Source: a virus. From it: a stretch of 64,000 bases of DNA. The notes under the pieces were generated by a model. The model was not told where the DNA came from, searched no databases, and was given only the letters and a program-made list of their open reading frames with translations. The position numbers and the translations under genes are program-made. The DNA is taken from positions 1 to 64,000 of the IMG/VR virus record IMGVR_UViG_3300036668_000172, one strand, 5' to 3'. This document shows, in pieces, positions 22,792 through 40,291 of the stretch (position 1 is the stretch's first letter; every line of letters begins with the position of its first letter).

Positions 22792-22849
22792 CGATAAAGC
22801 CCACCCTGCTGGGAGGAGGGCGGGAACCAGCAGAGTGGGCAGTTTATCG
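22792..22849 (-). ncRNA. Long hairpin (terminator or sRNA) with a 14-nt anti-SD-like loop
   Basis: CGATAAA-CT-GCCCACTCTGCTGG / CCAGCAGGGTGGGC-TTTATCG with loop UUCCCGCCCUCCUC; the U-G pair works only on the minus strand. Confidence 0.55.
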
Positions 22850-22857
22850 GTGACTGT

Positions 22858-23229
22858 TTAGTTAGGTCGCCAAATATAACCGAGACCCTCAAGGTAATCC
22901 GCGAGGTCTCGTGGCACTGCATACTTAACACCTGATTTAAAGGTGTACGTGTTCCCAACGCCGTAAGTCATTTCATCGATGTCAGTGATTGTTCGTATAA
23001 CGACTTTGTCGTTATTTACCGATACGCCTACCTCTTCAATCTCATCTAGGAAGATTGGAACATCTGGATTCTTTGGGTCAAAGACCCCAGTCTCTAGTAG
23101 CTCTGCTTCTGCCTGACGAGTTGTCGAAATTTCATCCTGACGTGCTCTCAGCTCTGCTGCGTTTCTTTTTGCTGCGTCTTCGGCAGCTTTACCCGTTGCG
23201 TCTAGTGGGCTTGTCTTTGGTGTTGCCAC
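22858..23229 (-). CDS. Hypothetical head-associated protein
   Basis: Directly downstream of the capsid gene; RBS AGGAG, GTG start. Confidence 0.65.
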   Translation of the reverse strand: MATPKTSPLDATGKAAEDAAKRNAAELRARQDEISTTRQAEAELLETGVFDPKNPDVPIFLDEIEEVGVSVNNDKVVIRTITDIDEMTYGVGNTYTFKSGVKYAVPRDLADYLEGLGYIWRPN

Positions 23230-23262
23230 AGTATTTTTCTCCTAATGTTAGATGTTTGTGTT

Positions 23263-23284
23263 GGGGGGCCCCGAAGGACCCCCC
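23263..23284 (-). terminator. cUUCGg hairpin after the capsid gene (no U-tract)
   Basis: GGGGGGTCC-TTCG-GGGCCCCCC followed by AACACAAACA. Confidence 0.55.
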
Positions 23285-23302
23285 TCCACTAATGTTGCAC
23301 TA

Positions 23303-24415
23303 TTACGCGGTGTATACCTTGACAATAGCCTGGTCGGTGATAACACCAAGACCCCAAATTGCGTACCATGCAAGTGCGTGCTCGCGACCGAAGTCTAGAA
23401 CACCACCGTCACGGAGCTCAACTGGTAGAGAGATTGCGTGACCAAATGCGTTGTCACCAATCATGATTGACTCGTAAACGTCAGTTGCAGTGGTTCCAGT
23501 AGGAGCGGTTGCGCCTGGCTCTGCAGGGTTTCCACCACCACCTGGGACGGTGTTAGCCTTTACAGGGATGTAGCTCTGGCCTGTAAGGAGACCTGCCTGA
23601 GCGCTGTAATCAACTGCGGTACCCTGAGCTAGCTTGTTAACCTGAGTGGTCTCGATGAAGACTACGTCGTATAGACGACCAATCTCACCAAGCATGAAGT
23701 TACCAGGTGCTGCATATTTGGTAACTTCAATGAACTCTGGGTTTGAACGCAAGTCGCGTGACTGCTTTGGGTGGATGAACTGTACGTAGGTTTCGCCTAG
23801 ACGTGGGATGTTCTTTCCAGCAAGAGTAAGAGCGGCATCCTTGATGGCACCAGTCGTTAGCTTGTGGGCTGCTGAAACTCCAGCAATAGAAGTAGCTGCA
23901 GTTCCCTCGTCGTAGTTGGTGAATGCGCCACCAACGATACCTGAGCGGTCGTAACCGAATACAGCTGAAGTAGCTGCAGACAAGGTGTTACGTGCCTGTA
24001 GGTCTAGGTACTGTGCCATGTGGCGACCTAGGAGACGCGAAGCGGAAGCCATAACGTCATCAAATGATGCGTTAAGTAGTAGCTCCGAAACAGCGGTTGC
24101 GTAACCGTGCTCTGCAACGGTGATAGCAATCTGCTCTGCGGTTAGTGAGTTGGTAGTCATACGGACACCTTCGGTCAGTGGAGTTGGGTCCACTGCGAAG
24201 TTCTTGTAACGTAGGAAGTTGACACGGAGACCAGGTGATACACCTAGCTCGGTCTTCTTAACTGCGAACTGTTCAAAGCGAAGAATTGGCATCGCTTGGA
24301 ATAGGATTTCCTTTGACCAGATGGTCTGAATGGCCTGTGAAAGCTGGGAGTTGCTACCTGAGTAAGCTGTAGGTGCGCCTGCGAGCTGACCAGTTCCTGT
24401 AATACCTGAAGCCAT
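23303..24415 (-). CDS. Major capsid protein, N4-gp56 family
   Basis: LRFEQFA, PLTEGV, EHGYA, FIHP.Q..DLR, GEIGRL..VVFIET, DFGREHALAWY; RBS GAAAGGA. Confidence 0.9.
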   Translation of the reverse strand: MASGITGTGQLAGAPTAYSGSNSQLSQAIQTIWSKEILFQAMPILRFEQFAVKKTELGVSPGLRVNFLRYKNFAVDPTPLTEGVRMTTNSLTAEQIAITVAEHGYATAVSELLLNASFDDVMASASRLLGRHMAQYLDLQARNTLSAATSAVFGYDRSGIVGGAFTNYDEGTAATSIAGVSAAHKLTTGAIKDAALTLAGKNIPRLGETYVQFIHPKQSRDLRSNPEFIEVTKYAAPGNFMLGEIGRLYDVVFIETTQVNKLAQGTAVDYSAQAGLLTGQSYIPVKANTVPGGGGNPAEPGATAPTGTTATDVYESIMIGDNAFGHAISLPVELRDGGVLDFGREHALAWYAIWGLGVITDQAIVKVYTA

Positions 24416-24451
24416 AGTGGTTCAAGTCCTTTCGGTCTAGTTAGTTGATTG

Positions 24452-25213
24452 TTAGTTGAACAAACCCTGTCCACTGTTGTTGCCTGTGCCAAGTAGCTTG
24501 GCTCTGTTCTTTGCATAATCCGCCATTGACATGTTATTAATGTCGTTGGGCGAGTACGAGCGTTGTTCCGAATCGTTATCCAGGGGTCCTGAGGCAGGCA
24601 CGGTAACCCGTGCTCCCACCATGTCTTTTCTCGTCTGTACCCCAGCTTGGGCTACAGAGTCAAAAATCTTTGCAGATTTGTCTTTCAACGATGAGATACT
24701 CTGCTCAATCTCATCCTCGTTATTACCCTGAATCATGTCGATAAGCTCAGGGATAATGCCGTCTCTTTCCTGCTCTAATCTCATAGAGCGGTAGTTAGTG
24801 AGGGCTTGAAAGCGACGTTCTTGGTCTAGGAGTGCAAATGCCTTCTCACGTTCCTGGCGCTCATTGTCTAACTGAGACTGCCATTCCTGTTCCTTGACCT
24901 GCAGAAGCTGGCGAACCTCAAGTTCAGCTTCTTCCTCATCCTTCTTCTTCTTCAGAGCTTCGGTATCACGCTTTTTGCGGTCATCCTTGCGACGAGACTC
25001 TTCAGCCTCACGCTCTTGCTCACGTAGCTTGAGAAGGGTAAGCTCTTCTTTTAGCTTCTCTACCTGAGGGTAAAGCTTCTCTTTTTCCTGTGCACGAGCT
25101 TTTGCAATGTCATCAGCTGTGAACTGTGGAAATGGAGTATCAGGAGTTTCTGCGGTATTTAGAGCATCTGTTGCGGTTTCAGGCAAAGTCTCAGCCTGCT
25201 GTATTTCGTCCAT
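24452..25213 (-). CDS. Capsid scaffolding protein
   Basis: Coiled-coil, FTADDIAKARAQEKEKLY, C-terminal MSMADYAKNR; lies between portal and capsid. Confidence 0.8.
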   Translation of the reverse strand: MDEIQQAETLPETATDALNTAETPDTPFPQFTADDIAKARAQEKEKLYPQVEKLKEELTLLKLREQEREAEESRRKDDRKKRDTEALKKKKDEEEAELEVRQLLQVKEQEWQSQLDNERQEREKAFALLDQERRFQALTNYRSMRLEQERDGIIPELIDMIQGNNEDEIEQSISSLKDKSAKIFDSVAQAGVQTRKDMVGARVTVPASGPLDNDSEQRSYSPNDINNMSMADYAKNRAKLLGTGNNSGQGLFN

Positions 25214-25351
25214 GGGTATTCTCTTTTCGTTTACTTGGTCGTTGTCCGTATGAGTGTCTGGTTAGCCGTGCCTATTACGTAACTAGTTTTTAGTATTTAG
25301 AGTAACTTTGGTATCTAAACCCAATAAATTACAGCAATTAAATATTAAAAA

Positions 25352-27058
25352 CTATTCTCTGTCAGTTGCTTGTCTAGGAGGAACTTGGTCCCCATAAGCT
25401 TGCAATAACAAATCTTGTTGTAGTTTCATCTCAGCCTGCGCTATTGCTGGGTTAGCCTCAGCTCCTGAGTTGAGTTGGCCGTCGCCTACAAGTTCTCCGC
25501 CAGCCATAGTAGGCTCCATTGGAGTGGCGGTACCATCTGGGGCTACTAGCATTCCAGTAAGGTCCATGAGTTGCTTCTGAATCTCGGCTTTAATAAGGTT
25601 AATTGCACCCTCATCTTTGACGTCGTTAATAAGCTCTTTTCTAATCTCAGCGAGCTTCTCTTCTGGGAATTCTTCTCCAAGGGCGCGTAGAGCGCCTTCT
25701 TTGGACTCAAGCCCCATAGACATCTTCTGAGAAAGCTCGTTAAGAAGAACAATCTTATCCAGAGGTAGGGGAGGAGGGAAGTGCGCGTGTGAGATGTACG
25801 TGATTGGGTCGTTGGGGTCCAACTTAGTAAGCTGGTTCTCATTGATAGCGCCATCAGTAGCTGGGTTATACACGAGAGACTCGGGCTCTTTAACAACCAA
25901 GTTGAGCATAATAAGCTCATTAACCTTTTCTAATCCAGCCTTGTACATTGAGACCTTGTGGGTCCAACGGTTCATTAGAGGCTGGAACTGAATCTGTAGA
26001 GCAACACCAGAAGTATTAGATACAGGCTGGGATTGGCCAAGAGCTGACTCTGGAATGTTCATAAGCTCGTGCATTGAGCGTTTAATCATCTCTAGGTATT
26101 GTAGAGAGCCCTGAATACCAGCACTACCACCTTCTAGGTTGAAGACCTGCGCATCTTTAGGTAGGCCTCCCCAAACCTTCTTTGCACCCTTTTCAAGGTT
26201 AGAAGCCTTAGCGCCAGTAATAACTGTGATTGGAGCAGCGTGATAGTTGATGATGTCAGCGACATCTGTTGAAATTTCGTTATACGACCTGTTTAGACTA
26301 ATAATGTCATGAGCATCAGAGAGACCCCAAGGAGAGCCAGATACAGGGATGTTTGGTATGTGTACAACAGGGATAAGCCCGAGCGGATTAGGTCGCGAAT
26401 CAATGAGCTCATCGTTTATGTACTCCTCAATAATGTCGTCTGTAAGAATTTCAGTGTAGGTAAACACTTGGCGAGTTCCCTCTAAAGAGGTTCCCCAGAA
26501 ACGGTACTTCTGCTTGAACCTAAGAAGGCGTGTACGGTCGTGGGGGTGAAACTCTGGGAAACAAAATGCTGAGTTGAGAGGAAGGATACGTACTCTTCCT
26601 GGGTGAATGCGTCCTACGGCATCTTCCCAAGCCTCTTCGTAAGCAACCTTAACGAAACAATCTCCTGTGATACCGCCAATTTGCGCCATCTCAAGAAGTA
26701 CTTTAGTCTTTTGATTGTCTATTTCCCAAACACGCTCTAGTCGGTTTGGTACTATGGCCTCAGTCGCTGCTGGAGAGCGGAAGTGGATTCCCTGTCCAAA
26801 CGTGAACCTAGCTAGATAGTCAATGAATGCGCGATAGTAGTTGACAGAGATTTGCATCTCGCCCTGCTCGCGGCGGTATCCCCAGTGGTGGCCAAGATAC
26901 ATGGCCCAGTTTAGGGAGTAACGGTTTAGACGAGGACCGTGGACCTCAAATTCTTCATCAGCAAGCTCAACGAGCCCCAGAGGGGAAATGGAGATAGTAA
27001 GGTCAGAGGACGCTGCCCTGTAGCTTGGGGGCGAGAAGTCAAAATATGACCCACTCAT
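25352..27058 (-). CDS. Portal protein (SPP1 gp6-like)
   Basis: NYYRAFID, GDCF, NPLGLIPVVHIPN, WGLSD, NTSGVAL. Confidence 0.9.
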   Translation of the reverse strand: MSGSYFDFSPPSYRAASSDLTISISPLGLVELADEEFEVHGPRLNRYSLNWAMYLGHHWGYRREQGEMQISVNYYRAFIDYLARFTFGQGIHFRSPAATEAIVPNRLERVWEIDNQKTKVLLEMAQIGGITGDCFVKVAYEEAWEDAVGRIHPGRVRILPLNSAFCFPEFHPHDRTRLLRFKQKYRFWGTSLEGTRQVFTYTEILTDDIIEEYINDELIDSRPNPLGLIPVVHIPNIPVSGSPWGLSDAHDIISLNRSYNEISTDVADIINYHAAPITVITGAKASNLEKGAKKVWGGLPKDAQVFNLEGGSAGIQGSLQYLEMIKRSMHELMNIPESALGQSQPVSNTSGVALQIQFQPLMNRWTHKVSMYKAGLEKVNELIMLNLVVKEPESLVYNPATDGAINENQLTKLDPNDPITYISHAHFPPPLPLDKIVLLNELSQKMSMGLESKEGALRALGEEFPEEKLAEIRKELINDVKDEGAINLIKAEIQKQLMDLTGMLVAPDGTATPMEPTMAGGELVGDGQLNSGAEANPAIAQAEMKLQQDLLLQAYGDQVPPRQATDRE

Positions 27059-27294
27059 TACTTACTCTTGCTCTGGTGCTGTTTGCTTGCCATGTGTGCC
27101 TTCTCCTGAAGAAAATGCTTTATCATTTCCTTCTTCCGCGCTTCTGCTTCTTGGTCTATAAACTTACCACCAAGTTCCAGATAACGTGTGTGAACCCAAT
27201 GTGATGCTCCAGGAGAAGGGTACACTCGGTACTTCGCCTTAGCTTGGTTAACAACCATGGCATACAACTTTTGGTTGGTGGGTTCGTTAGTCAC
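27058..27294 (-). CDS. Hypothetical protein
   Basis: PTNQKLY..AKAKYRVYPSP.ASHWV..Y..LGGKF; TAATG-coupled to portal. Confidence 0.65.
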   Translation of the reverse strand: MTNEPTNQKLYAMVVNQAKAKYRVYPSPGASHWVHTRYLELGGKFIDQEAEARKKEMIKHFLQEKAHMASKQHQSKSK

Positions 27295-27315
27295 TGAAAC
27301 TCCTAAAGGCCTAAG

Positions 27316-27345
27316 CCTACCCCTCTACAGTAGTAAAGGGGTAGG
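27316..27345 (-). terminator. Stem-loop, probable terminator
   Basis: CCTACCCCTTTAC/GTAGAGGGGTAGG. Confidence 0.55.
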
Positions 27346-27359
27346 AACTAGGGGTTAAA

Positions 27360-27797
27360 TTAGTCGTTGACTACAGTCGGGTTAACACGCATGGTGCGAC
27401 CCATTGACATCTTGGTCTCAATAACCTGCTCGGAGTTCTGGCTGTAAGAGCCATGAGCAAATTCGCCAAGGAATGTCGGTGCCTCAATCCATGCAGCCGA
27501 ACCGACGTGTGCACGCTCTGAAAGAGTCTCAGCTGCTGGCTTCTGCCATACAGGTGCATTACGGTTTGGACGACCTGGAGCGCTAGAGGAGCCGCTTACC
27601 ATGCCCTTCTGAAAGTCGGTTGGAACATCGGTATCTGTGGCGATACCTTCCTCAAAACGTAGCGGTCCACGGCGTTCTACATTGCCAGTGGCTTTCATCT
27701 CATACATCTGAGGTGCTCGTTCAGGAAATTGTGGTGCGGGAGCGATACCCATGGAAAACTCCTTAAAGTTAGGATTGGAATAATCTGCAGTTTCCAT
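27360..27797 (-). CDS. Hypothetical (possibly virion) protein; true start probably at MGIAPAP
   Basis: RRGPLRFEEGIATDTDVP; AAGGAG precedes the internal ATG. Confidence 0.6.
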   Translation of the reverse strand: METADYSNPNFKEFSMGIAPAPQFPERAPQMYEMKATGNVERRGPLRFEEGIATDTDVPTDFQKGMVSGSSSAPGRPNRNAPVWQKPAAETLSERAHVGSAAWIEAPTFLGEFAHGSYSQNSEQVIETKMSMGRTMRVNPTVVND

Positions 27798-27845
27798 TTA
27801 CAAGTGTGGCTGTTATCCGCCAATTTGTACTACTAAACTCTTTTT

Positions 27846-29456
27846 TTAGTAAAACATGTTAGAGGTAGACTCCACCTCTGGCATAACTAGGTCCACAGTC
27901 ATAGAGCAGGCGATAGCTAACGAGTCTACGAAGTCATCATGGGCGTAGTTCTCCTTAGGAGCCTCCACAGAGAAGTTAGGTCCCTTGTAGGTAACTTCTG
28001 CGTCTGTCATCTGCTGGTAGAACTGCTTCCATACACGCAGTCTCTTTGTCTTAGCGTGAGACGGGAAAGAGAGCATGCGGCGCTGTATTAGCGCCTGCAA
28101 ATGTTTAAACCTTCTAGACTGCTCTGTAGGGCTAGAGGTAAGGCCAATCACTTCTGCTCTGGGCATTAAGACTTTTAGTCGTTGAGCGACAGCGTCGCCG
28201 ACTCCGTTCGAGTCCACCCCAATCGCGAGAACATCGTAGTTATTAAGAAAGTTAACGATTTGAAAATACTGTTCTTCCCAATCATCCCCTTGAATTTCCA
28301 GCCAGTTGAGAACTCTGTGGTCATAATAGCCAAACTCATCTGGGCGGTCCCAGTCAACCCAGACCACAGTGACAACAGTGGAGTCCATTTTTCTAGCAGG
28401 GTCGACTCCGACCACAACAGGGGTTTGATGCCAGACTTTGACGAGCTCTTGCGACTTGTCACCCAGTTCATCCAAGAGGGTAGCCGTAACAAACATGCCT
28501 CGCTCAAGAAGCCATTTGCAGTTGTAAGACATCTGGAACTCATCTGATTCTTCTCCAATTCGCAATGCCTCTTTCTTAATAAACTTTGCATAGTTCTTGT
28601 TGACTTTTGCTACGTCTTTCCAGTCCCACTGGTAGTGGTTCTGTCGAGCCCCACGCCCACTGGCGCGGCGCTTATTGAGCTGGATAGAACGGTAAAAGTT
28701 GTTCTTACTGGTGGTGGGTGTTCCTGTCTTTATCATGGTTCCTGCGTAATACGCAAGCATCGGAGCGATTGACTTAGAGACCACGAAGTCATCTGCTTCT
28801 TGGCACTCATCGATTACGATTACGTGGAACGACTTGGACTCAATCTTTGCGCGAGGGTTAGCTGTCATCATGGTGAGTGTTGACCCGAGCTTCTTCATGC
28901 GAATCATTCTGGTAACACCACCGACTTTGGCTGCCTCGTCATCTATTTCTGGGTCTCCCAGTACTTCAAGAGCAATCTCTGAGGTTAGTCGAGTGACCGT
29001 ACGAGAGAAGAGGGTTTCGGCCTGAGACTCAGTAGGAGCAAACATCCCTACCCACAAGCCATCTCTAAAGCGCCCTAGCAGGTCTGGGTATAGTTTTGCG
29101 AGAAGAGGCAGGAGAACCATGAGAGTTGCAAGTGTGTCAGATACAGTTTCAGTCTTTCCAGACTGGCGAGATGCTAGCGCAGTTACTTCTTCGCCGTCAT
29201 TTATAATAACGGACTCTATAATACGACGAGCTAAAGGCTTCTGGTATACGTGAAGGTCATGCCCGACCAAAACCTCCATAAAGGTCATAATCTTGTCTAT
29301 AAGCTTTATAACAAATGCGGTGGTTAGTTCGTCAGGTTCTTCGTCCCAGCCCTGTTCAGACTCATCTTCATGGTCTTCTTGATAGAACTCAGGGTTAATT
29401 TCCTCAAACTTCTCCCGCTCTTCAAAGTCATTTACTATTTCTTCGTAGTCAGCCAT
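27846..29456 (-). CDS. terL: Terminase large subunit
   Basis: Walker A SRQSGKT, Walker B VIVIDE, GTP motif, RNase H-like VGVDPA and HDDFVDS. Confidence 0.93.
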   Translation of the reverse strand: MADYEEIVNDFEEREKFEEINPEFYQEDHEDESEQGWDEEPDELTTAFVIKLIDKIMTFMEVLVGHDLHVYQKPLARRIIESVIINDGEEVTALASRQSGKTETVSDTLATLMVLLPLLAKLYPDLLGRFRDGLWVGMFAPTESQAETLFSRTVTRLTSEIALEVLGDPEIDDEAAKVGGVTRMIRMKKLGSTLTMMTANPRAKIESKSFHVIVIDECQEADDFVVSKSIAPMLAYYAGTMIKTGTPTTSKNNFYRSIQLNKRRASGRGARQNHYQWDWKDVAKVNKNYAKFIKKEALRIGEESDEFQMSYNCKWLLERGMFVTATLLDELGDKSQELVKVWHQTPVVVGVDPARKMDSTVVTVVWVDWDRPDEFGYYDHRVLNWLEIQGDDWEEQYFQIVNFLNNYDVLAIGVDSNGVGDAVAQRLKVLMPRAEVIGLTSSPTEQSRRFKHLQALIQRRMLSFPSHAKTKRLRVWKQFYQQMTDAEVTYKGPNFSVEAPKENYAHDDFVDSLAIACSMTVDLVMPEVESTSNMFY

Positions 29457-29685
29457 TGCGCTCTCTACGTTTTAATTCAGTAGTAATTGCCAATAAGGCT
29501 TCAGCGCCCATGTGGGCGTCTTCCAACATGTCAGAGTTAGACTCTCTGCTCCAGTGGGTGATGTTCTTGCCGATAGAGTACAGGGAAGTCTCTACCCAAA
29601 GAATTAGGTCAGTAGTCCCAATCTTCTCTACCCTCTTCTGAAGCTTTGTAGGCGGGGGGCTGCCAGCCTTCGTAAAAATCTTCAT
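29449..29685 (-). CDS. Hypothetical protein (start uncertain)
   Basis: Helical ORF overlapping terL. Confidence 0.5.
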   Translation of the reverse strand: MKIFTKAGSPPPTKLQKRVEKIGTTDLILWVETSLYSIGKNITHWSRESNSDMLEDAHMGAEALLAITTELKRRERNG

Positions 29686-29929
29686 CTGTTAGTACTCGAC
29701 CTTCTATTGCGCGACTTAGTGCTTCTTCTTCTGTGTCAATGTTACCTGTCCATCTACCGATAACAAGGGCTTTATTATGGGGCATTCTAAAAATTAGTGG
29801 GGCAGAGGTCCTAAAGGGCTCCGAAATCTCTTGAGTCCAGCCTCTTACCCAGAATTTGCTCTTCCACTGTACGGGGAACTTAATGTACTGTACAAAGTGT
29901 TTTGGTCCGATGTCGTGTATTTTTGGCAT
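29609..29929 (-). CDS. Hypothetical protein
   Basis: ORF with RBS AGGA. Confidence 0.6.
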   Translation of the reverse strand: MPKIHDIGPKHFVQYIKFPVQWKSKFWVRGWTQEISEPFRTSAPLIFRMPHNKALVIGRWTGNIDTEEEALSRAIEGRVLTDEDFYEGWQPPAYKASEEGREDWDY

Positions 29930-29935
29930 GTTGTC

Positions 29936-30769
29936 CTATTTTTGATACGGGTTCTTCCCCATCTTTGCTGCGGGGTTCTTTCCTCTATTAGCGCTTGGAT
30001 TTTTGGCAGATGACACACGCTTCTGAGAGCTTGTAGACACGTAGTTAGCTGTTCTAATCTTACGGTCTCCTACCTGTATAGACCTAGTCCTACCAACTAC
30101 AGATGCGCTTGACGCAGTCCTAGCTACTCGGTAAACCTGCCTCTGCAATTCAACAGGGACTTCTGACAGGTCTGCAGGGCCGTGAGGGTATCCCAACAGT
30201 ACGCCGTCGGAACCTTGGAACTGGTTCTTCCTGTTCAGCATTGGGCCTTTAGAGATAGAGCTTTTAAAGGTCTGCCAAGTTCCTGGAGGCACGTTGTAGT
30301 AATTGTAGAAGGTTCCATCGCGGAAGACAACGGTTAGTTTACCGCGTTGGTCTGCGTATGGCTTTGCCCTCTCACCTACATAGAGGTAGTAGCCAGCAGC
30401 TAAGGTCCTTGGACGAGAAGCATTGCTCGTCGAAGTTGGTATGTTTAAGTTTTCTGGATTAACAGGGGTTAAGCGGTCACCAAAGAAGTTGGTCTCTTCA
30501 TCAAAGACGTCCATCCCATATGCTGATGAGTCATTCCCATTAAATACTTGCCCACCATAGTTAGGGTCTTCACGGTATGCATCTGCTTGAAACTCTGAGT
30601 AACGGTCTCTAATCGGCTTGCCAGTAGCGGGGTCAACTTGAGTTTGCCCATCTATTTGACGAACTGGGTTTGTAGTGGGTAGCTGGCTCAGCCTAGGGAC
30701 TACATAGTCCCCCGTAATTTCCGTAAGGCGATTACGTAGTTGATTACGTAGTTCTTTATCGGCAGCCAT
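29936..30769 (-). CDS. KTSC-domain protein (leaderless)
   Basis: LTVVFRDGTFYNYYNVP...FKSSISKG; -10 TATACT 6 nt before the ATG. Confidence 0.7.
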   Translation of the reverse strand: MAADKELRNQLRNRLTEITGDYVVPRLSQLPTTNPVRQIDGQTQVDPATGKPIRDRYSEFQADAYREDPNYGGQVFNGNDSSAYGMDVFDEETNFFGDRLTPVNPENLNIPTSTSNASRPRTLAAGYYLYVGERAKPYADQRGKLTVVFRDGTFYNYYNVPPGTWQTFKSSISKGPMLNRKNQFQGSDGVLLGYPHGPADLSEVPVELQRQVYRVARTASSASVVGRTRSIQVGDRKIRTANYVSTSSQKRVSSAKNPSANRGKNPAAKMGKNPYQK

Positions 30770-30782
30770 GACCCCAGTATAA

Positions 30783-30822
30783 AGTTAACCCCCGCCCATG
30801 TAAGTATGAGCGGGGGTTAACT
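30783..30822 (-). terminator. Intrinsic terminator
   Basis: 17-bp stem AGTTAACCCCCGCTCAT/ATGGGCGGGGGTTAACT, continuing into a short T run. Confidence 0.7.
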
Positions 30823-30833
30823 ATTACTTTTGC

Positions 30834-32875: not shown

Positions 32876-32960
32876 TTATAAACAGGTCCTAAGGTAAGTT
32901 GCAGGTATCTACTATTGTGAAGTATGATAGCTGATACCGCACACGATACTCGGAGAACTT

Positions 32961-33149
32961 ATGCAGACCCTTCTTATTCTATTCATCATCTTTGTAGTCT
33001 TTTGCACATTCTTTATGTTGTTTTTGCAGTGGCTGTCCCAAGGCTCAAAGGACCCATTTGCCAAAAAGCTACGCACTATCGGATGGATAGGCGTAGCTCT
33101 AGGTTATGTGGCTATCTCATTGGGCCTTTTCGTATTGCCCATCTTTTAG
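32961..33149 (+). CDS. Two-TM small membrane protein on the opposite strand
   Basis: Two hydrophobic segments, RBS GGAG, upstream -10 TATGAT. Confidence 0.55.
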   Translation: MQTLLILFIIFVVFCTFFMLFLQWLSQGSKDPFAKKLRTIGWIGVALGYVAISLGLFVLPIF

Positions 33150-33330
33150 TATTTGGTCCTCCACTAATAGATTCTCCAGCAGCACCTCTGCCTGGTGAAG
33201 CCCAGCTAATTATGCTTGGTTTTTCGTTTGATTTAGGCCACTGATTTCCCAACATAGGGGAAACAGGTCTAGGAGTAATGACCTGCTTATTAGGGACTAG
33301 TTGCTTACGGGGAAGCATAAAGGGTGCCAC
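33112..33330 (-). CDS. Hypothetical protein
   Basis: GTG-start ORF downstream of the holin. Confidence 0.45.
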   Translation of the reverse strand: MAPFMLPRKQLVPNKQVITPRPVSPMLGNQWPKSNEKPSIISWASPGRGAAGESISGGPNTKRWAIRKGPMR

Positions 33331-33339
33331 GAGATGTTT

Positions 33340-33546
33340 CTAGTCTTCTTTAGGGCTAGTTACAGCGATGATAGAAGTTAGCACTGATAGTAGGGCTGCT
33401 CCACCAGAGATGCTTATTAGGGTTACGTAGTCAATAGCTAGCAATCCGATACTGCCAGTTCCTAGTACAGCCACTGCGGCCTGTGCAAATGTTTTTACGG
33501 CGCGTTCTCCCGCAAAACTCCAGAACTTCTTAGTCAGAATAGTCAT
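33340..33546 (-). CDS. Holin, phage r1t family
   Basis: FWSFAGERAVKTFAQA...LLSVLTSI. Confidence 0.9.
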   Translation of the reverse strand: MTILTKKFWSFAGERAVKTFAQAAVAVLGTGSIGLLAIDYVTLISISGGAALLSVLTSIIAVTSPKED

Positions 33547-33857
33547 TATGGCTCCATTTCATTGTTATTGGGTTTGTATAGTTTTACATCTTCAAGTGTA
33601 GCAATCGCTGTGTAAGCGGTCAATATAATGCTGATAAGAGATACTCCGCCTGTAATAAGGGCGACACCTACACCGTACATGTCGTTTAGAAAAGTGAAGC
33701 CCCCAAGTATAACCATGGCAAAGCCTAGGCGGTAGGCTCCAAAGATTAGAGTTCTACGAAATTTCCAGCTAGGGCCTTGCGGTGCCTCAGACTCTTCCTT
33801 TAAGAAGAACAATGCATTTATTATAGATTTCATAGCTCTCTCTTGCAACAAGGGCAA
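33546..33857 (-). CDS. Two-TM membrane protein (lysis accessory)
   Basis: SWKFRR followed by two hydrophobic helices; start probably MKSII. Confidence 0.6.
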   Translation of the reverse strand: MPLLQERAMKSIINALFFLKEESEAPQGPSWKFRRTLIFGAYRLGFAMVILGGFTFLNDMYGVGVALITGGVSLISIILTAYTAIATLEDVKLYKPNNNEMEP

Positions 33858-34366
33858 ATCTCTACAAGATTAGCCTCGATAAGCTTCTTAAGGTCCACCT
33901 TCGCAGACGTTGCTCCAAAGACACCTTTTAGGGTCCTAGACGCGGTTCCATGGAGATGGGGCCCTGAACTTCCAGAGCCCGTGTTACCGATGTAAGCCAT
34001 AAGTTGCCCAGCTTCAACCTTTGTGCCTACCGTTTTGTTTATAGGAGCATGAGGCCCCTCAACTCGGGGTCCTCTACAATTCATCCCGTGGTTATTGCAA
34101 GAAATGTGGGAGTATCCTAGATACCATACCTTCTTGTCTTTAGCCATAGCGGTTTGGACAATAACCCAGCCAAGGACATCAGACCACTGGATAAGCTTTA
34201 TAGTTCCTGCAGCAATAGATGATATTCCAGTTCTACCCTTATTAGAGCCAGAAGGGGCCCAGTCTGTACCTGAGTGAGGTTGCATGTTGTTCTGCCGACG
34301 AAAGGCAGACATAGTCCCGTATTCACCTGTAACGGCGCTTTCGGGGAACGGCATTAGCCAAGACAT
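33830..34366 (-). CDS. Endolysin, M23 peptidase
   Basis: HSGTD, YSH, GNTG.SSGPHLH. Confidence 0.9.
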   Translation of the reverse strand: MSWLMPFPESAVTGEYGTMSAFRRQNNMQPHSGTDWAPSGSNKGRTGISSIAAGTIKLIQWSDVLGWVIVQTAMAKDKKVWYLGYSHISCNNHGMNCRGPRVEGPHAPINKTVGTKVEAGQLMAYIGNTGSGSSGPHLHGTASRTLKGVFGATSAKVDLKKLIEANLVEICPCCKREL

Positions 34367-34456
34367 AGTTCTCCTAAGTAATTTACGTGTACTACCATTG
34401 TGACTTACTTAGGGTCCGATGTCGGCGTAAACTTTGGGGTAGCTAGTTGCTGGGAC

Positions 34457-34786
34457 TCACATCCCAGAGCCGCCACCGTCTCCTCCGCCATCAGCACCGT
34501 CTCCTGGTGCTCCTCCGATAGCGTCTGCGGCGCGGTCTCCTGCCGATGTGTCTCCAGGAGTTCCCTGCATAGAAGTGTTTGAGCCCGTGCTCATAGCTGC
34601 ATAGTTATTTGCACCTGCGTACATGACTGGGTAGCCGTGCCAAAAAGGTGAGCCTGGAACCGCAGGTCCCCGAGTGCTGCCCCCAAAAGAGCTCTCCCTA
34701 GCTGCTGCTACTTGGTCTACACCTGGGACCATGTTGAACTCCCTTAGGTAGGGAGCCATCTGGCTCTTTTCGTATTCAGGAAGCAT
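34457..34786 (-). CDS. Hypothetical Gly-rich protein
   Basis: ORF with RBS GAGG. Confidence 0.55.
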   Translation of the reverse strand: MLPEYEKSQMAPYLREFNMVPGVDQVAAARESSFGGSTRGPAVPGSPFWHGYPVMYAGANNYAAMSTGSNTSMQGTPGDTSAGDRAADAIGGAPGDGADGGGDGGGSGM

Positions 34787-34788
34787 TG

Positions 34789-34971
34789 TTACCTCTTTTT
34801 TTTCTTAGGTTGTCTTTGGGTTAGGCTGGAGCTTGTAGCAATCTTTTTAGAAGGAACCTTCTTTGCCCGTGCGGTTCCTGGCCCTAGCTTGGTAGCAACT
34901 ACCATGTGCTCTAATTCTCCTGGGGCAGGCTTACCTTTACGTAGCTCGTTGCCGCTTAAGGGTCTAGTCAT
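34789..34971 (-). CDS. Small basic protein
   Basis: ATGA-coupled to the upstream ORF. Confidence 0.5.
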   Translation of the reverse strand: MTRPLSGNELRKGKPAPGELEHMVVATKLGPGTARAKKVPSKKIATSSSLTQRQPKKKKR

Positions 34972-35120
34972 TTTTCCTCTTCATCTGAGAAGACCTCAAC
35001 TTCGTATTCACTCTCGTCAAACAAGGAGTAAAGTAGGTCTTCGTCTAGCTCTTCGCCATCAAAATAGACATCATCCGCTGTATCAGCGTCGTAAGGGTCT
35101 ATAGGTCCGTACCAGGTCAC
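34968..35120 (-). CDS. Highly acidic 50-aa protein (leaderless, GTG start)
   Basis: MTWYGPIDPYDADTADDVYFDGEELDEDLLYSLFDESEYEVEVFSDEEEK; extended -10 TGG-CACACT 6 nt upstream. Confidence 0.6.
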   Translation of the reverse strand: MTWYGPIDPYDADTADDVYFDGEELDEDLLYSLFDESEYEVEVFSDEEEK

Positions 35121-35161
35121 ATAAATAGTGTGCCACAGATTGTTTGTGTTGGTGTTCTAAG

Positions 35162-35235
35162 CTCCCCTTCCTGGACTTGAACCAAGAACCTACGAGTTAA
35201 CAGCTCGCCGCTCTGCCGAATTGAGCTAAAGGGGA
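35162..35235 (-). tRNA. tRNA-Asn(GTT), CCA not encoded
   Basis: TCCCCTT-TA-GCTC-AATTCGGCA-GAGC-G-GCGAG-CTGTTAA-CTCGT-AGGTT-CTTGG-TTCAAGT-CCAGG-AAGGGGA-G. Confidence 0.95.
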
Positions 35236-35339
35236 AAGGCTTTAAGCTTTTACTAGCTTCCTTTTAACTGAGTCAAAGGTCTTTGGGTGCTTCTTAGAAG
35301 ATTTCCCATTGTTTCTTTTATCGTTACTTGTTTTAGCCA

Positions 35340-35507
35340 TTAGCTTTTACCCCATCCGCCACCCTTAAAGATGGCCGCGCCTAGTGAGAATTTCTTTCTC
35401 CGTGCAGTAGAGCACGTCATACAAATGATAGTTGGGGAATCACTGACAGGGTGGCTAATTTCAATAACACTTTTACAAGTTGCGCACTCGTAGTCATACA
35501 CTGCCAT
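35340..35507 (-). CDS. FmdB-family zinc ribbon protein
   Basis: MAVYDYECATC...CMTC...FKGGGW; RBS AAAGGAG places the start at 35507. Confidence 0.85.
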   Translation of the reverse strand: MAVYDYECATCKSVIEISHPVSDSPTIICMTCSTARRKKFSLGAAIFKGGGWGKS

Positions 35508-35524
35508 AGTTCTCCTTTGCACGT

Positions 35525-35596
35525 GGGCTGTAGAGGAGTTGCACCTCTCATGTGGTCAGAAAGGAAGTAAAGACCCCACACGGCTCTCGTCAGCCC
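35525..35596 (-). ncRNA. tRNA-like RNA with an anti-SD-like loop in place of the anticodon
   Basis: Acceptor-like GGGCTG/CAGCCC, no D stem, central stem GTGT-GG-GGTC/GACC-ACAT with loop UUUACUUCCUUUCU, T arm AGAGG-TGCAACT-CCTCT. Confidence 0.65.
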
Positions 35597-35598
35597 TA

Positions 35599-35680
35599 AA
35601 ACAGTGGCAAGTACAACCAGAAGTCGTAGTAGAAGATTTGGTTAGTTATAATCGGATAACCGAAGTACTTGCCACTGTTT
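35599..35680. ncRNA. Putative structured RNA closed by a perfect 16-bp inverted repeat
   Basis: AAACAGTGGCAAGTAC (35599-35614) / GTACTTGCCACTGTTT (35665-35680) enclosing two small stems. Confidence 0.5.
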
Positions 35681-35684
35681 AGTT

Positions 35685-35930
35685 TTAGACTAGTACTTCG
35701 TCAGCTCCGCCACTACGGTCTGACGCTGTACTGGGATTAGTATAGTCAATAAAGTCTAACATTGCAGCAATCGAGTAATAAGACACGTCAAAGAAAGTAG
35801 AGGCTTGAGAAAGCAGGTCTACTGGGTGACTAACTTTCTCTAAACCGTATACGTCTTCTAGGTACTGCAGCAGGGCTGGAGTAAACGCTTCTATGAAGTC
35901 TGCTGGTGCCATGCAAGGAAATTCATTCAT
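35685..35930 (-). CDS. Hypothetical protein
   Basis: Co-oriented ORF. Confidence 0.6.
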   Translation of the reverse strand: MNEFPCMAPADFIEAFTPALLQYLEDVYGLEKVSHPVDLLSQASTFFDVSYYSIAAMLDFIDYTNPSTASDRSGGADEVLV

Positions 35931-35933
35931 TAG

Positions 35934-36167
35934 TTATTCCGTCTCTAAATGCCTATTAAACACAAGTCGCTCACGTTCATCAATGATTTGATACGCAAAC
36001 TTCATTAGCTTTTCGTATGCTTCAGCATCGGTAGTGGTTTTGTTGTAGTGATGAGCGCAGAAAAGTAGCTCACCAATGTTTCCCACAGCCTTCACATAGG
36101 CCTGAGAGGAACACTCGAAGTCGCACCTGTCTAGGGGCGTAAGCGTCCAGACCACTGTTTCAGTCAT
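35934..36167 (-). CDS. Conserved actinobacterial Zn-binding protein
   Basis: LTPLDRCD..CSSQAYV...GELLFCAHH. Confidence 0.7.
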   Translation of the reverse strand: MTETVVWTLTPLDRCDFECSSQAYVKAVGNIGELLFCAHHYNKTTTDAEAYEKLMKFAYQIIDERERLVFNRHLETE

Positions 36168-36426
36168 CTTGTCCCTCTATAGAAACTATCTTGGTAGTTA
36201 CCCACCATCCATCTTTACCGCCAATGTACATGTGCTTGCCTACTTGCACTGGTAGCCTTTTGTGCGCATCTTCTTCGCCAAACGCAGAGGGCAGTTCGTT
36301 GACTTTCATTCCTTCATAATTGTCAAAACAATACGCGTACCAGTGCTTGAATTGAAAAATTCCATTCTTGAAGCAATAGCCGTTTCTAAGGTCGTATATA
36401 GACCCAGTCTCAGTTGTAATTATCAT
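36160..36426 (-). CDS. Hypothetical protein
   Basis: TTETGSIY...TTKIVSIE. Confidence 0.6.
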   Translation of the reverse strand: MIITTETGSIYDLRNGYCFKNGIFQFKHWYAYCFDNYEGMKVNELPSAFGEEDAHKRLPVQVGKHMYIGGKDGWWVTTKIVSIEGQDD

Positions 36427-36575
36427 CTGGTCTTCCTGTCACAGAAAAATACGAACACCCTCTTGCCAATAATGATATCTAAGGTCGGTTGGGTTTTCAC
36501 GTCATACAGGTTGATGCCGAATACATAGTGAGTCCCCAGAGAGCCAGAGTCTCTATAGCTTCTAAACTTAATCAC
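36423..36575 (-). CDS. Hypothetical protein (50 aa)
   Basis: GTG start with RBS AAGGAG; ATGA overlap with the next gene. Confidence 0.5.
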   Translation of the reverse strand: MIKFRSYRDSGSLGTHYVFGINLYDVKTQPTLDIIIGKRVFVFFCDRKTR

Positions 36576-36822
36576 CGAATTTCTCCTTATAAGAGTTATC
36601 TAAAGCCTTTAAAGCTTTGCTGACGCAAATTTCTGCACCATCACCATAGCGATGTTTAAACTCTACACCGCGTTCTTCGTAGCCCTCTAGATACAGGGGG
36701 TCTTCACCAGTAGTAGCAATGTAGGTGTTCACATTACTAGGTGAAGTTCCGCCCTTTACTCTGGCTATGTGTATCTCAGTGAGCAGCTGTCTGTTTAATC
36801 TAATCTGGACGTGTAGTGGCAT
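36568..36822 (-). CDS. Hypothetical protein
   Basis: HRYGDGA..VSKAL motif. Confidence 0.6.
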   Translation of the reverse strand: MPLHVQIRLNRQLLTEIHIARVKGGTSPSNVNTYIATTGEDPLYLEGYEERGVEFKHRYGDGAEICVSKALKALDNSYKEKFGD

Positions 36823-37399
36823 CTTGACCTCTTCTCTTGGCTCCCATTACTCCCCTTAGGTATTCAAAGCAATAGATGTGCATCAGTGAGTCCCATCCAG
36901 CATCGTGCTGATTCTCTGTACCAATCTTTTCAATGGCATAAGCCTTCGCGCGTTTCTTCCAAGTCGCAGCTTTTACGGGCATCCCGTGCTCCTCTTTATA
37001 GTCCAGAGCGAAGCATAGTGCGTTTAGGTCAACAGTTCTTCTTGAGAAGAGTGAGTAGGTTTTAGGCAGAGAGTCTTTCACAAAGGGCATGTCGAATGCG
37101 CCAACGTTGAAACCAACAGGAATAGTTTTACCCCTGCTGTTAGTATCGACCCCTATTGCAATCAACCAATCGTAAACCTGACTGTCAACCTCATCTGGCA
37201 AAGGCGCACTTTGTAAAGACTCTAGTGTTATGCCGTGAACCTCAAAGGCGCGCTCTGACCACTGGCACTCACCTGGATTCATATTCATGGAGATTTGATA
37301 CCCGTCCTCGGTGGATAGGCCAATCTGAATCAGCTTGCCACCTTCACTCAACTCACTAGAGGACATCTCTCCATCTAGTCCTAGGAATAGGTAACTCAT
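36800..37399 (-). CDS. DEDDh 3'-5' exonuclease
   Basis: LDGE, GFNVGAFD, HDAGWD. Confidence 0.85.
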   Translation of the reverse strand: MSYLFLGLDGEMSSSELSEGGKLIQIGLSTEDGYQISMNMNPGECQWSERAFEVHGITLESLQSAPLPDEVDSQVYDWLIAIGVDTNSRGKTIPVGFNVGAFDMPFVKDSLPKTYSLFSRRTVDLNALCFALDYKEEHGMPVKAATWKKRAKAYAIEKIGTENQHDAGWDSLMHIYCFEYLRGVMGAKRRGQDATTRPD

Positions 37400-37435
37400 T
37401 TCTCTCCTTTATAAGTAAAAATGATTATTTGCGTT

Positions 37436-38206
37436 TTAGCTTATAAGTTCAATCTGCACTGAACACTCGCAGCCTATCAACGCTGTGTGATAGTCGCTGC
37501 AGTTTTCTGTTAGAACTTGGACAATCCGTCTTCGTTCTCCAAGCAGCGCCCTAGAGAGTTTAGTCTCTATGACCGCAATCAAAGCGTGCGGGGCGTCAAG
37601 CATGTCATTGACCCAATGGTTATCAAGGAACTCTTGCTCTTCTTGTAGCTCGTCTGCATCAAGTGAGCCTAGGTAATCCTCTTGCTTAGTCATCTCTCGC
37701 ACTCCATAATCATGTTGCGTACAGTGGCTTCATACTCTTTTTTCCACTCTGGAAAATCAGACAGTTGTTCAAAGATTTCGTTTAGCTCTTGCTCACGTTT
37801 TTCTGTGTCGTAAGAAACGCTCTTGCCTCCGTAGCAACCAACTCCGTACCTAAACTCCCACTTGTTATCATCGTGAAAGTCTGGCATAAACTCCGCTTCA
37901 TTCCATGAGCCACCGCAAACATCGCAGTCGGAATCGTCGCCCAAGCTCCAAGAGAGGTCTCTATCTTCTTCAGCCATCTCAACTGCAAAGTCTCGCTTTG
38001 TAGTTGGCTCAGTCATCTTGTCCCTCTCTTATTAGTTTCTCTAGGTCTTTTGCGTAATAGGGGTCAGCTAGTGCCTCTAGGATGTCTCGCTTAGCTGCTT
38101 TATCCTTTATGAGCGCAATGATACGTTTCTGCTCTTCCTCAACTCCAGCTTCGTAACCCTTGAGAAAGGCAAAACTTATTTGTAATCCATCGTCTAGTTC
38201 ACTCAC
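37436..38206 (-). CDS. Three hypothetical proteins (37436-37702, 37690-38016, 38009-38206)
   Basis: Overlapping co-oriented ORFs; two share the E.xRII/IV motif. Confidence 0.55.
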
Positions 38207-38259
38207 AGTGCACTCCTACCTATACCCTATACGCTTTTGTTGGTACTCACTCTATCACT

Positions 38260-38708
38260 TTAGAAGAGCATGTCCCCGCTTTGGGGTTTCGGGTTTCCTT
38301 CTTGAGAGTCTTGGTATTCAGACCTTGGGGTAGTCATCTTGGTTTTCCTGTTGGGGGTGGCGTCAGACGCGCCGAAAGGGGCTGGGTTGAACTGAGACTT
38401 ATTAGCGTTGCTATTAGCAACCTCTTTGCCCGCTGTAGTGCCACGAGCTGCCAGCTGAGCATCGCGCTTCTTAATGCTGCTCTTAGCTTTCTTATAGCGG
38501 CCTTCGAGACTCAAAGCTCTAAACCTGTTTTCCAGAAGGAGTGGTTGGGGTCAGACAAGTCCATGTGCACAACATTAGTGTGTGGGTCCCTGATGCCCTG
38601 AAGTCCCATTCGGGAAGTCGTCTCTTCAACCTGACTCTTTGGAGACTCAAACTGAGTTGGGTCGTTGACGTTCTTGACTGAGCCGTCTCTTTTATCGTGG
38701 AAGTCCAT
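38260..38708 (-). CDS. Two small hypothetical proteins (38260-38514, 38511-38708)
   Basis: Coupled ORFs. Confidence 0.55.
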
Positions 38709-38800
38709 TAGTCACTCTTTTCATGTTTGGTTTCACATTCTCTGGCTAAGGACGCAACGGGGAATGATTTTTTGCAAATGCTACAGTGACCTTCGCTCAT
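38708..38800 (-). CDS. 30-aa Zn-finger-like peptide
   Basis: MSEGHCSICKKSFPVASLARECETKHEKSD; TAATG-coupled to the next gene. Confidence 0.5.
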   Translation of the reverse strand: MSEGHCSICKKSFPVASLARECETKHEKSD

Positions 38801-39054
38801 TGTTCCATTGTCCGCCTTTTGCGGACTCTCTGCAGGGTGAATTTTTTCGATAGAAGTCTTTTTTTCACTTCTCGTGTCAAAAGGATAACGTTATCGGGAT
38901 ACTTTTGACATTTGGCAAATCTAGCCTAAAAACGCCCTCGTAGAACGGCGGCTAACGGACTTTGACGATGCACCACGGGTGATTGCATCAAAACAAAGAT
39001 AAAAGCCCCCAGATTGTCTCTGAAGGCTTATTACGGCTATGTGGTTACTTTCGG

Positions 39055-39351
39055 CTATTCATGACCCACAACTTTGAAGCCTTTACGACTTCTTACCTCA
39101 TTTGGCTTCTTAGAAGGGGTGTAAAGTGTCTCATCTGACTCAAAAGGTTCCACTCTGTGGATTGTTCCCTTACCTCCACCAAAGAATCCTTCGGCGTATG
39201 CACGAGCTTTGTCAATGTCAGGAGTTGCTGAGGCTTCGCCCTTATTTGGACGGACTACTTCACCGATAGGAATAGTGGCAGGTGAACCGTGATAAAGAAT
39301 CTTTCCTTCACCACTACCTGCTGTGCGACGGTGGTTAAATGGAATGGCCAA
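39055..39351 (-). CDS. Arr-like ADP-ribosyltransferase-fold protein
   Basis: LYHGS..IPIGEVVRP, ASATPD...ARAYA, GTIHRVEP. Confidence 0.6.
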   Translation of the reverse strand: MAIPFNHRRTAGSGEGKILYHGSPATIPIGEVVRPNKGEASATPDIDKARAYAEGFFGGGKGTIHRVEPFESDETLYTPSKKPNEVRSRKGFKVVGHE

Positions 39352-39382
39352 AAGTTATCCTAAGAACGCCCCTATTACCAAG

Positions 39383-40157
39383 CTATTCGGCTGGAGCGGA
39401 CTTGACAGGGTTAGTTTTAAGGTGCTTGGTGTACTCACCAGCGGCTGTTTCGTTCAGTGGACTGCTGCTGCCACCAGAGGTCATACCCATTGGGCTAATC
39501 ACTTTGCTAAGCATCGGACGACCTTTGCCAGTCGCAATGTAGTCACCGTGCTTCTGAGCTGCTCCTTCGGAGCTGTGCATGGTGTCGGTTACAGCAGGGT
39601 CTGACATTTGAAGTCTGTAAGAACCATCGTGAAGACTAGTGTGGTCTCCCTGCTTACGGCTTGGGTGTTCTGCTCTGTTAGGTACGTCCATTTTTCTTTC
39701 CTAGCAATCTTTGAACTGAGTGGAGTTAAGAGCTCCGTGCTTTTCAGCCTTGCGGTCCTTGCGGAGTAGCATGCCGCCGCCGACTGCTCCTACGACTGCC
39801 CCTACTCCAGCAGCCATTAAGGCGTTTGCTGGGGATGCTCCATCGTGAGCTCCCATAGATGCGCCTGCCATGGCTCCCATAACTGCTGAGCCTGTTGGAA
39901 GAGCATCTACCATCTTATATTTTTTCATAATTAGATTCTCCCACGCAATTGTATTTTTCTCTCAGTAACCATTATTTCTTATTCGACGTACGAGGAACTT
40001 TTTTCTCCAAGGCGGCATTACCGTTCACGCTGGAGGCTTCCTTGGTTACTTCGCCTGATGTCTGAGCAAGATTGGCTCTTAGGTAGTCTCCGCCTTTGAT
40101 GCCACGAGGGCCACCAAACATGCCCTTGGCAATGTTGGGACTGAGATTACGATTCAT
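39383..40157 (-). CDS. Three small hypothetical proteins (39383-39691; 39701-39928, glycine-zipper-like; 39972-40157, leaderless)
   Basis: ORF track; -10 TGT-CATACT 6 nt before 40157. Confidence 0.55.
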
Positions 40158-40208
40158 GCTCCCAGTATGACATAGCTACAGGGGCGATTTAAGGCTAAAA
40201 ATGATAAG

Positions 40209-40291
40209 GGTGACCCCCTGGTAGAACTGTCCGTAGATGAAAAGGGGGTAACAACTACGGCTCGGCCAGGGGGCCACCTGAGTAGATAGTA
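40209..40291 (-). ncRNA. Stand-alone small RNA with its own promoter and an anti-SD-like loop
   Basis: Extended -10 TGC-TACTAT (hexamer 40286-40291); 13-bp stem GGTGGCCCCCTGG/CCAGGGGGTCACC; inner stem CCGTAG/CTACGG; loop UUACCCCCUUUU. Confidence 0.6.

Follow-up and report, generated by a model that had tools for sequence, protein, structure and literature searches.

A stretch of 64,000 nt of viral DNA, the first part (positions 1 to 64,000) of the 83,749-base IMG/VR virus record IMGVR_UViG_3300036668_000172 (estimated completeness 87%), carries on its minus strand hairpins with large loops that are rich in C and U. These loops look like the 3′ tail of 16S rRNA, the anti-Shine-Dalgarno (anti-SD) sequence. 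This stretch is called the window below. A first-pass annotation had placed three such loops on the minus strand, and all three are there and intergenic: site 3, after the capsid operon, site 2, a possible small RNA gene, and site 1, within the leader of a zinc-ribbon gene. A fourth hairpin precedes the DNA polymerase gene of the same virus, outside the window. The site 3 stem covaries around a fixed loop and a looser pattern is seen at the polymerase site, so the comparison shows that in this large group of aquatic actinobacterial phages there is selection for forming the hairpins and for their exposed, anti-SD-like loop sequences on the sense strand. The pyrimidine loops are probably functional, and a role in translation control is the most likely one. 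In the specific form that we prefer, CU-rich loops would be kept by selection for pairing with purine-rich ribosome-binding sites, thereby tuning translation initiation; we give this reading slightly less than an even chance.

Site 3 (22792..22849, minus strand) lies between genes for proteins of 123 amino acids (aa; 22858-23229) and 352 aa (21671-22729), a pair that comes after the capsid gene. It is formed by a perfect G+C-rich stem of 14 bp (22799-22840), lengthened by an A/U helix, and its loop UUCCCGCCCUCCUC (22813..22826, minus strand) ends in the nine letters of the conserved core, GCCCUCCUC. The calculated folding energy is -33.8 kcal/mol (z-score -5.58), and none of 200 shuffled sequences was as stable. 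Relatives were collected through the capsid protein: of 599 pattern matches 597 proved to be related stretches, from which we took the best 80. Both flanking genes and a readable gap were present in 68 of these 80 loci, the remaining 12 being dropped for want of a full copy of one flanking gene, and the 68 loci yielded 31 distinct hairpins. For each of the nine GCCCUCCUC positions, 30-31 distinct hairpins are long enough to include it, and 27-31 of these conserve the letter. In the stem, the fifth and sixth pairs from the loop each occur as all four Watson-Crick types in comparable numbers. We aligned 28 of the 31 versions, leaving out L008, in which the motif is absent, and L040 and L070, which duplicate the inner stem of L016. 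In these 28 rows 99.7% of 290 cells were paired and 10 of 11 pairs showed compensatory changes; none of 500 shuffles reached any of five covariation measures, and slid controls were paired to at most 53%. A conserved loop on a covarying stem, which the first-pass annotation had proposed as the test of its idea, is thus clear at site 3 and looser at the polymerase site, but sites 1 and 2 could be followed only into close relatives.

The pattern CTGG-N3-7-GCCCTCCTCCCAG, which places the loop core between CTGG and CCAG, occurs in at least 119 viral contigs. A homologue of a site 3 flanking gene is carried by 68 of 72 further motif contigs; the remaining four are rich in G+C, and one of them, L221, also forms a hairpin. 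Variants of the motif are found in L014, L019, L023 and L037, and four of five related genomes hold exactly one copy of the GCCCUCCUC 9-mer each. As a separate observation, L221 (IMGVR_UViG_3300037692_000037), a G+C-rich contig in which neither site 3 flanking protein was matched, carries near its end the same loop core on a 9-bp stem, GCGACCUGG/CCAGGUCGC.

At least five T are found within 10 nt after the stem in 27 of the 31 distinct site 3 versions, from which we infer a terminator-type hairpin of the capsid operon. As in an intrinsic terminator, the G+C-rich hairpin is followed by a U-rich tract and lies 3′ of a stop codon; the loop, at 12-17 nt in 30 of the 31 versions, exceeds the short-loop (3-8 nt) definition of such elements. 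A promoter and terminator scan that accepted only loops of 3-8 nt recovered a fragment of site 2 but neither site 1 nor site 3, and its yield was not above that of shuffles (14 vs. 20.6 promoter-like and 22 vs. 17.9 terminator-like sites). In the Streptomyces phages LuckySocke and BRock, the terminators that follow the capsid gene resemble site 3 in position, in their G+C-rich stems and U-tails and in their short, C-rich loops (CCCC, AUUCCCC). They differ in having loops of 4-7 nt from which the nine-letter core is missing, and the next gene downstream of the capsid gene has no gap behind it; in the sequences compared, the large conserved post-capsid loop is special to the aquatic clade. Between site 3 and the next gene (22730-22798, minus strand) relatives keep the blocks GCTGWAT and CGAGAnnAT, approximately 23 nt apart, which may represent a late promoter.

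The fourth hairpin (genome 70357-70402, or L087:6357-6402, minus strand) has a 13-bp stem and a 20-nt, CU-rich loop, CACUCCCUCCUUAUCCAUCC, containing CCCUCCUU. Its fold has a z-score of -4.60, and it ends 24 nt 5′ of the start codon of a family A DNA polymerase. The polymerase identified 357 related stretches, of which 80 were taken; these contain 71 distinct upstream regions, and every one of them has a hairpin of at least 9 bp. In 59 of the 71 the hairpin ends 17-25 nt from the polymerase start codon (median 21), whatever the loop, and a G-rich 5′ side is the only trait common to the stems. Loops of at least 9 nt occur in 46 regions and represent 36 distinct loops, 26 of them at least 80% pyrimidine, 10 mixed and none purine-rich (at most 20% pyrimidine). 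These loops differ widely in sequence and have in common their composition and short words, the most frequent 5-mers being CCTTT (in 18 of the 36 loops), CTTTC (15), TCCTT (13), TTCCT (13) and CCTCC (12). Per loop, the longest match to a word of the 16S tail has a mean length of 5.97 letters, vs. 4.84 ± 0.17 in composition-preserving shuffles, and none of 2000 shuffles came up to the observed mean. A U-rich tail (at least five T in 10 nt) follows the hairpin in 40 of the 71 relatives and is absent from the copy of this genome.

Two other explanations bear directly on these comparisons. The loops might be recognised or cut by a protein, such as the actinobacterial RNase E, which favours C-rich RNA in single-stranded form, ribosomal protein S1, for which they would be standby or enhancer sites, or a phage factor involved in termination or antitermination; a fixed nine-letter word would suit a protein site, and the constant distance of the hairpin from the polymerase start, whatever its loop, is expected of a processing or standby element. 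In mycobacteria, RNase E cuts unpaired RNA at RN/CNU, on the 5′ side of cytidines (PMC10641625), a rule with which GCCCU of the site 3 core agrees. Yet RN/CNU is low in information and would not fix nine letters, the polymerase-site loops are too varied for a sequence-specific protein site, and a candidate RNA-binding protein was not identified in this analysis, so that we regard recognition by a protein as unlikely.

The hairpins might instead act in cis only, as terminators, attenuators or stability elements, the loop masking the next SD solely in read-through transcripts, as in the fold-back inhibition known from IS10. The U-rich tails at site 3 and at the polymerase site would be expected, the GGAGG or GGGG SD of the next gene lies 20-85 nt downstream, and a promoter does not fit between the hairpin and the polymerase start. 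However, loops and SDs at the polymerase site do not co-vary: the pairing energy of a loop with its own SD was -5.81 kcal/mol, vs. -5.83 kcal/mol with the SDs of other regions (permutation p 0.53). This test has low power, and the SDs barely vary. The conserved promoter-like block after site 3 would moreover leave the loop off the message of the next gene, and site 2, with a promoter-like box to itself, stands apart. A role restricted to cis is therefore rather improbable in our view. SDs were slightly weaker in regions with a CU loop (-5.54 vs. -6.15 kcal/mol, p 0.014, uncorrected for ancestry), and nothing is drawn from this difference.

We also surveyed sense-strand hairpins in this genome and in the complete genomes of four relatives. 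A sliding 70-nt fold scan and a loose scan allowing G-U pairs proved too noisy, and the count was restricted to hairpins with loops of 9-26 nt on strong stems, defined as 10 bp or more with five or more G-C pairs and no more than one G-U pair. The five genomes contain 9 such hairpins with pyrimidine-rich loops, none with purine-rich loops and 33 with mixed loops. When weak stems with G-U pairs were allowed, the number of pyrimidine loops was not above shuffles (13 vs. a mean of 16.35). For comparison, sense-strand windows of at least 85% pyrimidine amount to 459 of 83,735 (0.55%) at 14 nt and to 106 of 83,729 (0.13%) at 20 nt. The other intergenic hairpins of this phage have loops of at most 10 nt or loops that are not pyrimidine-rich, which makes the large CU loops special. 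Such loops lie at different gene boundaries in different phages, for example at 20652-20686 of the relative G001. In another relative, G005 (IMGVR_UViG_3300021579_000001), two tandem CU-loop hairpins at approximately 88626-88700 (minus strand) directly precede a tRNA-Asn gene, one loop having a 10-letter match to the 16S tail and the other resembling the site 2 loop. The tRNA-Asn gene just downstream on that strand assigns one hairpin of G005 to the minus strand; the idea that it represents the antisense of a ribosome-binding site was dropped, as were alternative pairings of loops with their own stems, which depend on individual stems.

The strand bias bears on whether these structures work as RNA at all. 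Covarying inverted repeats would be expected equally of hairpins acting as single-stranded DNA in replication, priming or packaging, and the loop composition could in principle be a functionless by-product. Against this, the T-run lies on the sense strand in 27 of 31 site 3 versions, strong hairpins on the sense strand have pyrimidine-rich and never purine-rich loops, and a neutral by-product is excluded by the nine loop letters that stay fixed next to a rapidly changing stem; we consider this pair of explanations extremely improbable.

Site 2 (40209..40278, minus strand) folds into a 13-bp outer stem, an internal loop and an inner stem that bears the loop UUACCCCCUUUU (40240-40251, minus strand), and is followed by the U-rich tail CUUAUCAUUUUU at 40195-40208. 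With -38.5 kcal/mol (z-score -4.95) it was more stable than all 200 shuffles. A possible extended -10 box, TGcTACTAT (40286..40294, minus strand), was recognised by eye approximately 7 nt before the stem; it reads TGcTACCAT in the relative L086, and it is absent from the list of the promoter scan. From the box, the hairpin and the U-tail we infer a free-standing RNA of approximately 85 nt. Searches with the small flanking genes found only two relatives. The outer stem shows a compensatory C-G to U-A change in L086, and a 47-codon frame that runs across the site is shifted by a net +1 indel in the near-identical relative L085, which indicates that site 2 is non-coding. A covariance model built from three copies hit only the window and the relative G006, with no match in G001, G003, G004 and G005. 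On either side of site 2 the 20-nt word AAAWCGCCCCTGTAGCYATG occurs on the minus strand (40300-40319 and 40171-40190), each copy just 5′ of a -10-like box, and this repeat may be an operator or promoter element.

Site 1 (35524..35596, minus strand) is a tRNA-like leader element that ends 16 nt before the ATG (35507) of the zinc-ribbon gene. Its parts are an acceptor-like stem, GGGCUG/CAGCCC, a central arm (a 7-bp stem and three further pairs) and a T-arm-like hairpin, AGAGG-UGCAACU-CCUCU (35532-35548). The central arm carries the loop UUUACUUCCUUUCU (35558..35571, minus strand), which is one letter off the 11-letter 16S tail; the 83.7-kb genome has only two copies of TCCTTTC on its sense strand. 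A U-tail is absent, and the fold of the 91-nt region (-25.6 kcal/mol, z-score -0.41) was equalled by 73 of 200 shuffles. The strong stem attributed to all three loops by the first-pass annotation therefore holds for sites 2 and 3 but not for site 1. Here, too, the small flanking genes found only two relatives. In the relative L084 the outer stem is kept, the T-arm is altered by two compensatory pairs, and the loop is UUUAAUUCCUUUCU, with one letter changed.

Known tRNA-like processing elements and minihelices offer a comparison for site 1. In both sequences compared, as in a minihelix, an acceptor-like stem is stacked on a T-arm-like hairpin with a 7-nt loop, followed by an A. Unlike a tRNA, site 1 lacks a D arm and has a central loop of 14 nt, and neither ARAGORN nor the Rfam tRNA model called it; its processing is putative. 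The window holds two further tRNA-like elements on the plus strand (approximately 44044-44123 and 47490-47568), each just before a ribosome-binding site. All three have in common the outer stem, the hairpin loop UGCAA(G/C)U and an ACG just 5′ of the ribosome-binding site, two of the three are followed by AUGAAAGGAA, and the long central arm with a CU loop is confined to site 1. Such elements were not found in the four distant relatives G001, G003, G004 and G005.

These structures are not one family of RNAs. The word GAGCCGU, which the first-pass annotation had noted at the base of two of the stems, occurs (as GAGCCGT) 9 times in the window vs. 5.56 expected, a count reached by 11 of 100 shuffles, and neither relative compared retains it, so that its sharing is due to chance. 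The loop pattern TTACYYCCTTTY does have exactly the two matches that had been seen, but with up to one mismatch there are 3 vs. 2.86 expected. The scaffolds are also different, being tRNA-like at site 1, similar to an RNA gene at site 2 and of the terminator type at site 3. None of the four hairpins matches an Rfam family, and the tRNA-Asn gene at 35161-35235 is the only hit of Rfam (at the gathering threshold) or ARAGORN in the whole window.

The actinobacterial 16S 3′ end on which the anti-SD idea was founded was matched by the 3′ end of the 16S gene in one Pseudonocardiaceae genome; this same-family genome was used because a 16S gene was not found in two genomes reached through WhiB. The ribosome-binding sites GAAAGGAA reported at 41821, 44110 (44110..44117), 46842 and 47557 on the plus strand are also as described, and they are candidate targets of the site 1 loop, which contains their perfect 8-nt complement. 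GAAAGGAA is found 5′ of four ATGs in G006 as well. Its count in the window (5 vs. 2.27 expected) is not significant, being reached by 11 of 100 shuffles, and this complementarity is expected of any mimic of the 16S tail. By the same token, the loops do complement three SD types, but this follows automatically from their likeness to the 16S tail and singles out no specific or conserved target. In the capsid gene ribosome-binding site (24416-24440, minus strand), GAAAGGA is kept in all five genomes compared, G001, G003, G004 and G005 among them.

The first-pass annotation had taken the RNAs for global anti-SD decoys, which would soak up SDs and shut off SD-led host or early phage messages, leaderless or coupled late genes escaping. 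The likeness of the loops to the 16S tail agrees with this, site 3 would ride on the most abundant late message, and the strongest SDs are located in the plus-strand block (mean strength -8.2 kcal/mol, vs. -6.1 and -6.35 kcal/mol in the minus-strand blocks), a difference that fits a late-on-early effect and is not a demonstration of it. However, with gene starts taken as approximate open reading frame picks and a threshold of -6 kcal/mol or better, 78 of 121 predicted phage starts are SD-led, most late genes included. In the two minus-strand blocks, whose genes were supposed to escape by having no SD, 30 of 51 and 26 of 42 starts are SD-led, among them those of the capsid, the 352-aa protein and the polymerase, so that a decoy would hit the phage itself. 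A few RNA species would also have to compete with a large excess of ribosomes, and the strict nine-letter core of site 3 suggests a specific partner. Global decoy action is thus unsupported here, and we hold it to be very unlikely.

A related possibility, which we rate as rather improbable, is that mimics of the 16S 3′ tail evolved across the aquatic actinophage clade on terminator, small RNA (sRNA) and tRNA-like scaffolds and act in trans. They would do so either as competitive anti-SD RNAs, in a late switch away from early and host messages with strong SDs, or as decoys for host factors that recognise or cut the 16S tail; MazF-type toxins, said to cut UCCUU, are an example of the latter.

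In the pairing model that we prefer, the exposed large C/U loops would base-pair with ribosome-binding sites of the GGAGG, GAAAGGA or GGGGG type and thus tune translation initiation, as do the C-rich loops of 6C, LhrC, RsaE and RNAIII. Site 3, as the putative intrinsic terminator of the capsid operon, would present its loop at the 3′ end of an abundant late message or on a fragment derived from it. Site 2 would act as a free-standing RNA of approximately 85 nt, and site 1 as a tRNA-like leader that could be excised by tRNA-processing enzymes. The polymerase hairpin is predicted to be on the same RNA as the SD of that gene and may act in cis. The likeliest targets would be messages with strong SDs, from the plus-strand block of the phage or from the host, rather than all SDs at once.

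Several results weigh against pairing with ribosome-binding sites. Duplex scans of the loops over their own genome gave generic G-rich hits only, no orthologous ribosome-binding site stood out against the site 3 loop, and the reverse complement of the GCCCUCCUC 9-mer is absent from all five related genomes, which means that a perfect target inside the phage is absent; by all three approaches a conserved or specific phage target was not found. The fixed core of nine letters exceeds what pairing with a 5-nt SD would need, and the motif has been lost in L008. At the polymerase site, 25 of 71 regions lack a large loop on a stem of at least 9 bp, and the missing co-variation of loops and SDs counts here as well. 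A control with the reversed 16S tail (5.42) was also above shuffles, so that part of the likeness to the 16S tail reflects low complexity, and the counts at site 3 and at the polymerase site are uncorrected for shared ancestry. Finally, among the 24 sequencing runs listed, the only RNA run, a marine metatranscriptome with 5% of the words, yielded a single contig of 1230 nt from the capsid gene of a relative (window 23309-24502, less than 90% likeness) that covers none of the sites; contigs of this run are unable to show RNA ends, and no inference was drawn from them.

The virus has a G+C content of approximately 47%, and its minus-strand block contains the large terminase, portal and major capsid genes. 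Two genes of the WhiB family are present in this one phage (window 51963-52154, plus strand, and genome 65127-65351, minus strand), and their closest cellular relatives are from Prauserella and from metagenome-assembled genomes of Acidimicrobiia. Among cultured phages, the closest capsid proteins (approximately 60% identity) come from the Streptomyces phages LuckySocke, Alone3 and BRock. Together, these three lines point to an actinobacterial host. A search of the phage collection for near-identical sequences gave no match. DNA runs containing the virus are labelled as salt lake, ice, aquatic and freshwater metagenomes, and in three of them that we examined 28-30 of 30 bins of the virus were covered. 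A weak match to the RAGATH-30 RNA (38809-38868, minus strand; 25.8 bits, gathering score 59.5, E 0.33) sits in a gap of approximately 850 nt (38207-39054) between the approximate gene picks.

Among known systems, the 6C RNA of actinobacteria (RF01066) pairs through C-rich hairpin loops with G-rich ribosome-binding sites and is chaperone-free (PMC6486639). The present loops are similar in host phylum and in being C-rich hairpin loops, with a run of five C in the site 2 loop. They differ in being phage-encoded, with one loop per RNA and with U-runs and CCUCC in addition; the 6C model gave no hit at E up to 10 in positions 22000-41500 or around the polymerase site. In Firmicutes, the UCCC-motif sRNAs of the LhrC, RsaE and RNAIII type pair a CU-rich loop word with the SD of their targets (PMC4132741, PMC2790875), and in LhrC it is a CU-rich terminator loop that pairs with the lapB SD (PMC4132741). 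The likeness lies in the CU-rich word in hairpin loops, a terminator loop included, and the CUCCC...UUUU of LhrC resembles the site 2 loop. As in this class of CU-loop sRNAs, a C/U word is exposed in a stable hairpin loop, and the site 3 loop is conserved among relatives. The differences are another phylum and type of genome and a loop placed on the terminator of a capsid operon, not on a dedicated sRNA. A transcription terminator loop also serves as the regulatory pairing site in E. coli sRNAs (PMC11979758); these are enterobacterial and Hfq-dependent and, as far as that account describes them, do not have a conserved loop of the anti-SD type.

Full-text searches for anti-SD-like loops in phages, or for sRNAs of this kind in actinophages, found nothing on point, and the main text of a 2025 review of phage-derived sRNAs does not mention Mycobacterium or Streptomyces. 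Regulatory RNAs of lytic actinophages are an almost unexplored area, in which the present comparison offers a clear signal, a fixed loop on a fast-covarying terminator stem in more than a hundred viral contigs, and related CU-rich loops that recur at other gene boundaries in the same phage group. What is new here, as we read it, is that putative CU-loop regulators of a known mechanism class are carried by phages and in part form the loops of terminators. Should pairing with ribosome-binding sites prove correct, abundant late messages could have a second role as regulators, and phages would join the Gram-positive sRNAs in using C-rich loops that need no chaperone. Mimicry of the 16S tail directed at another partner would instead represent a new kind of host take-over.

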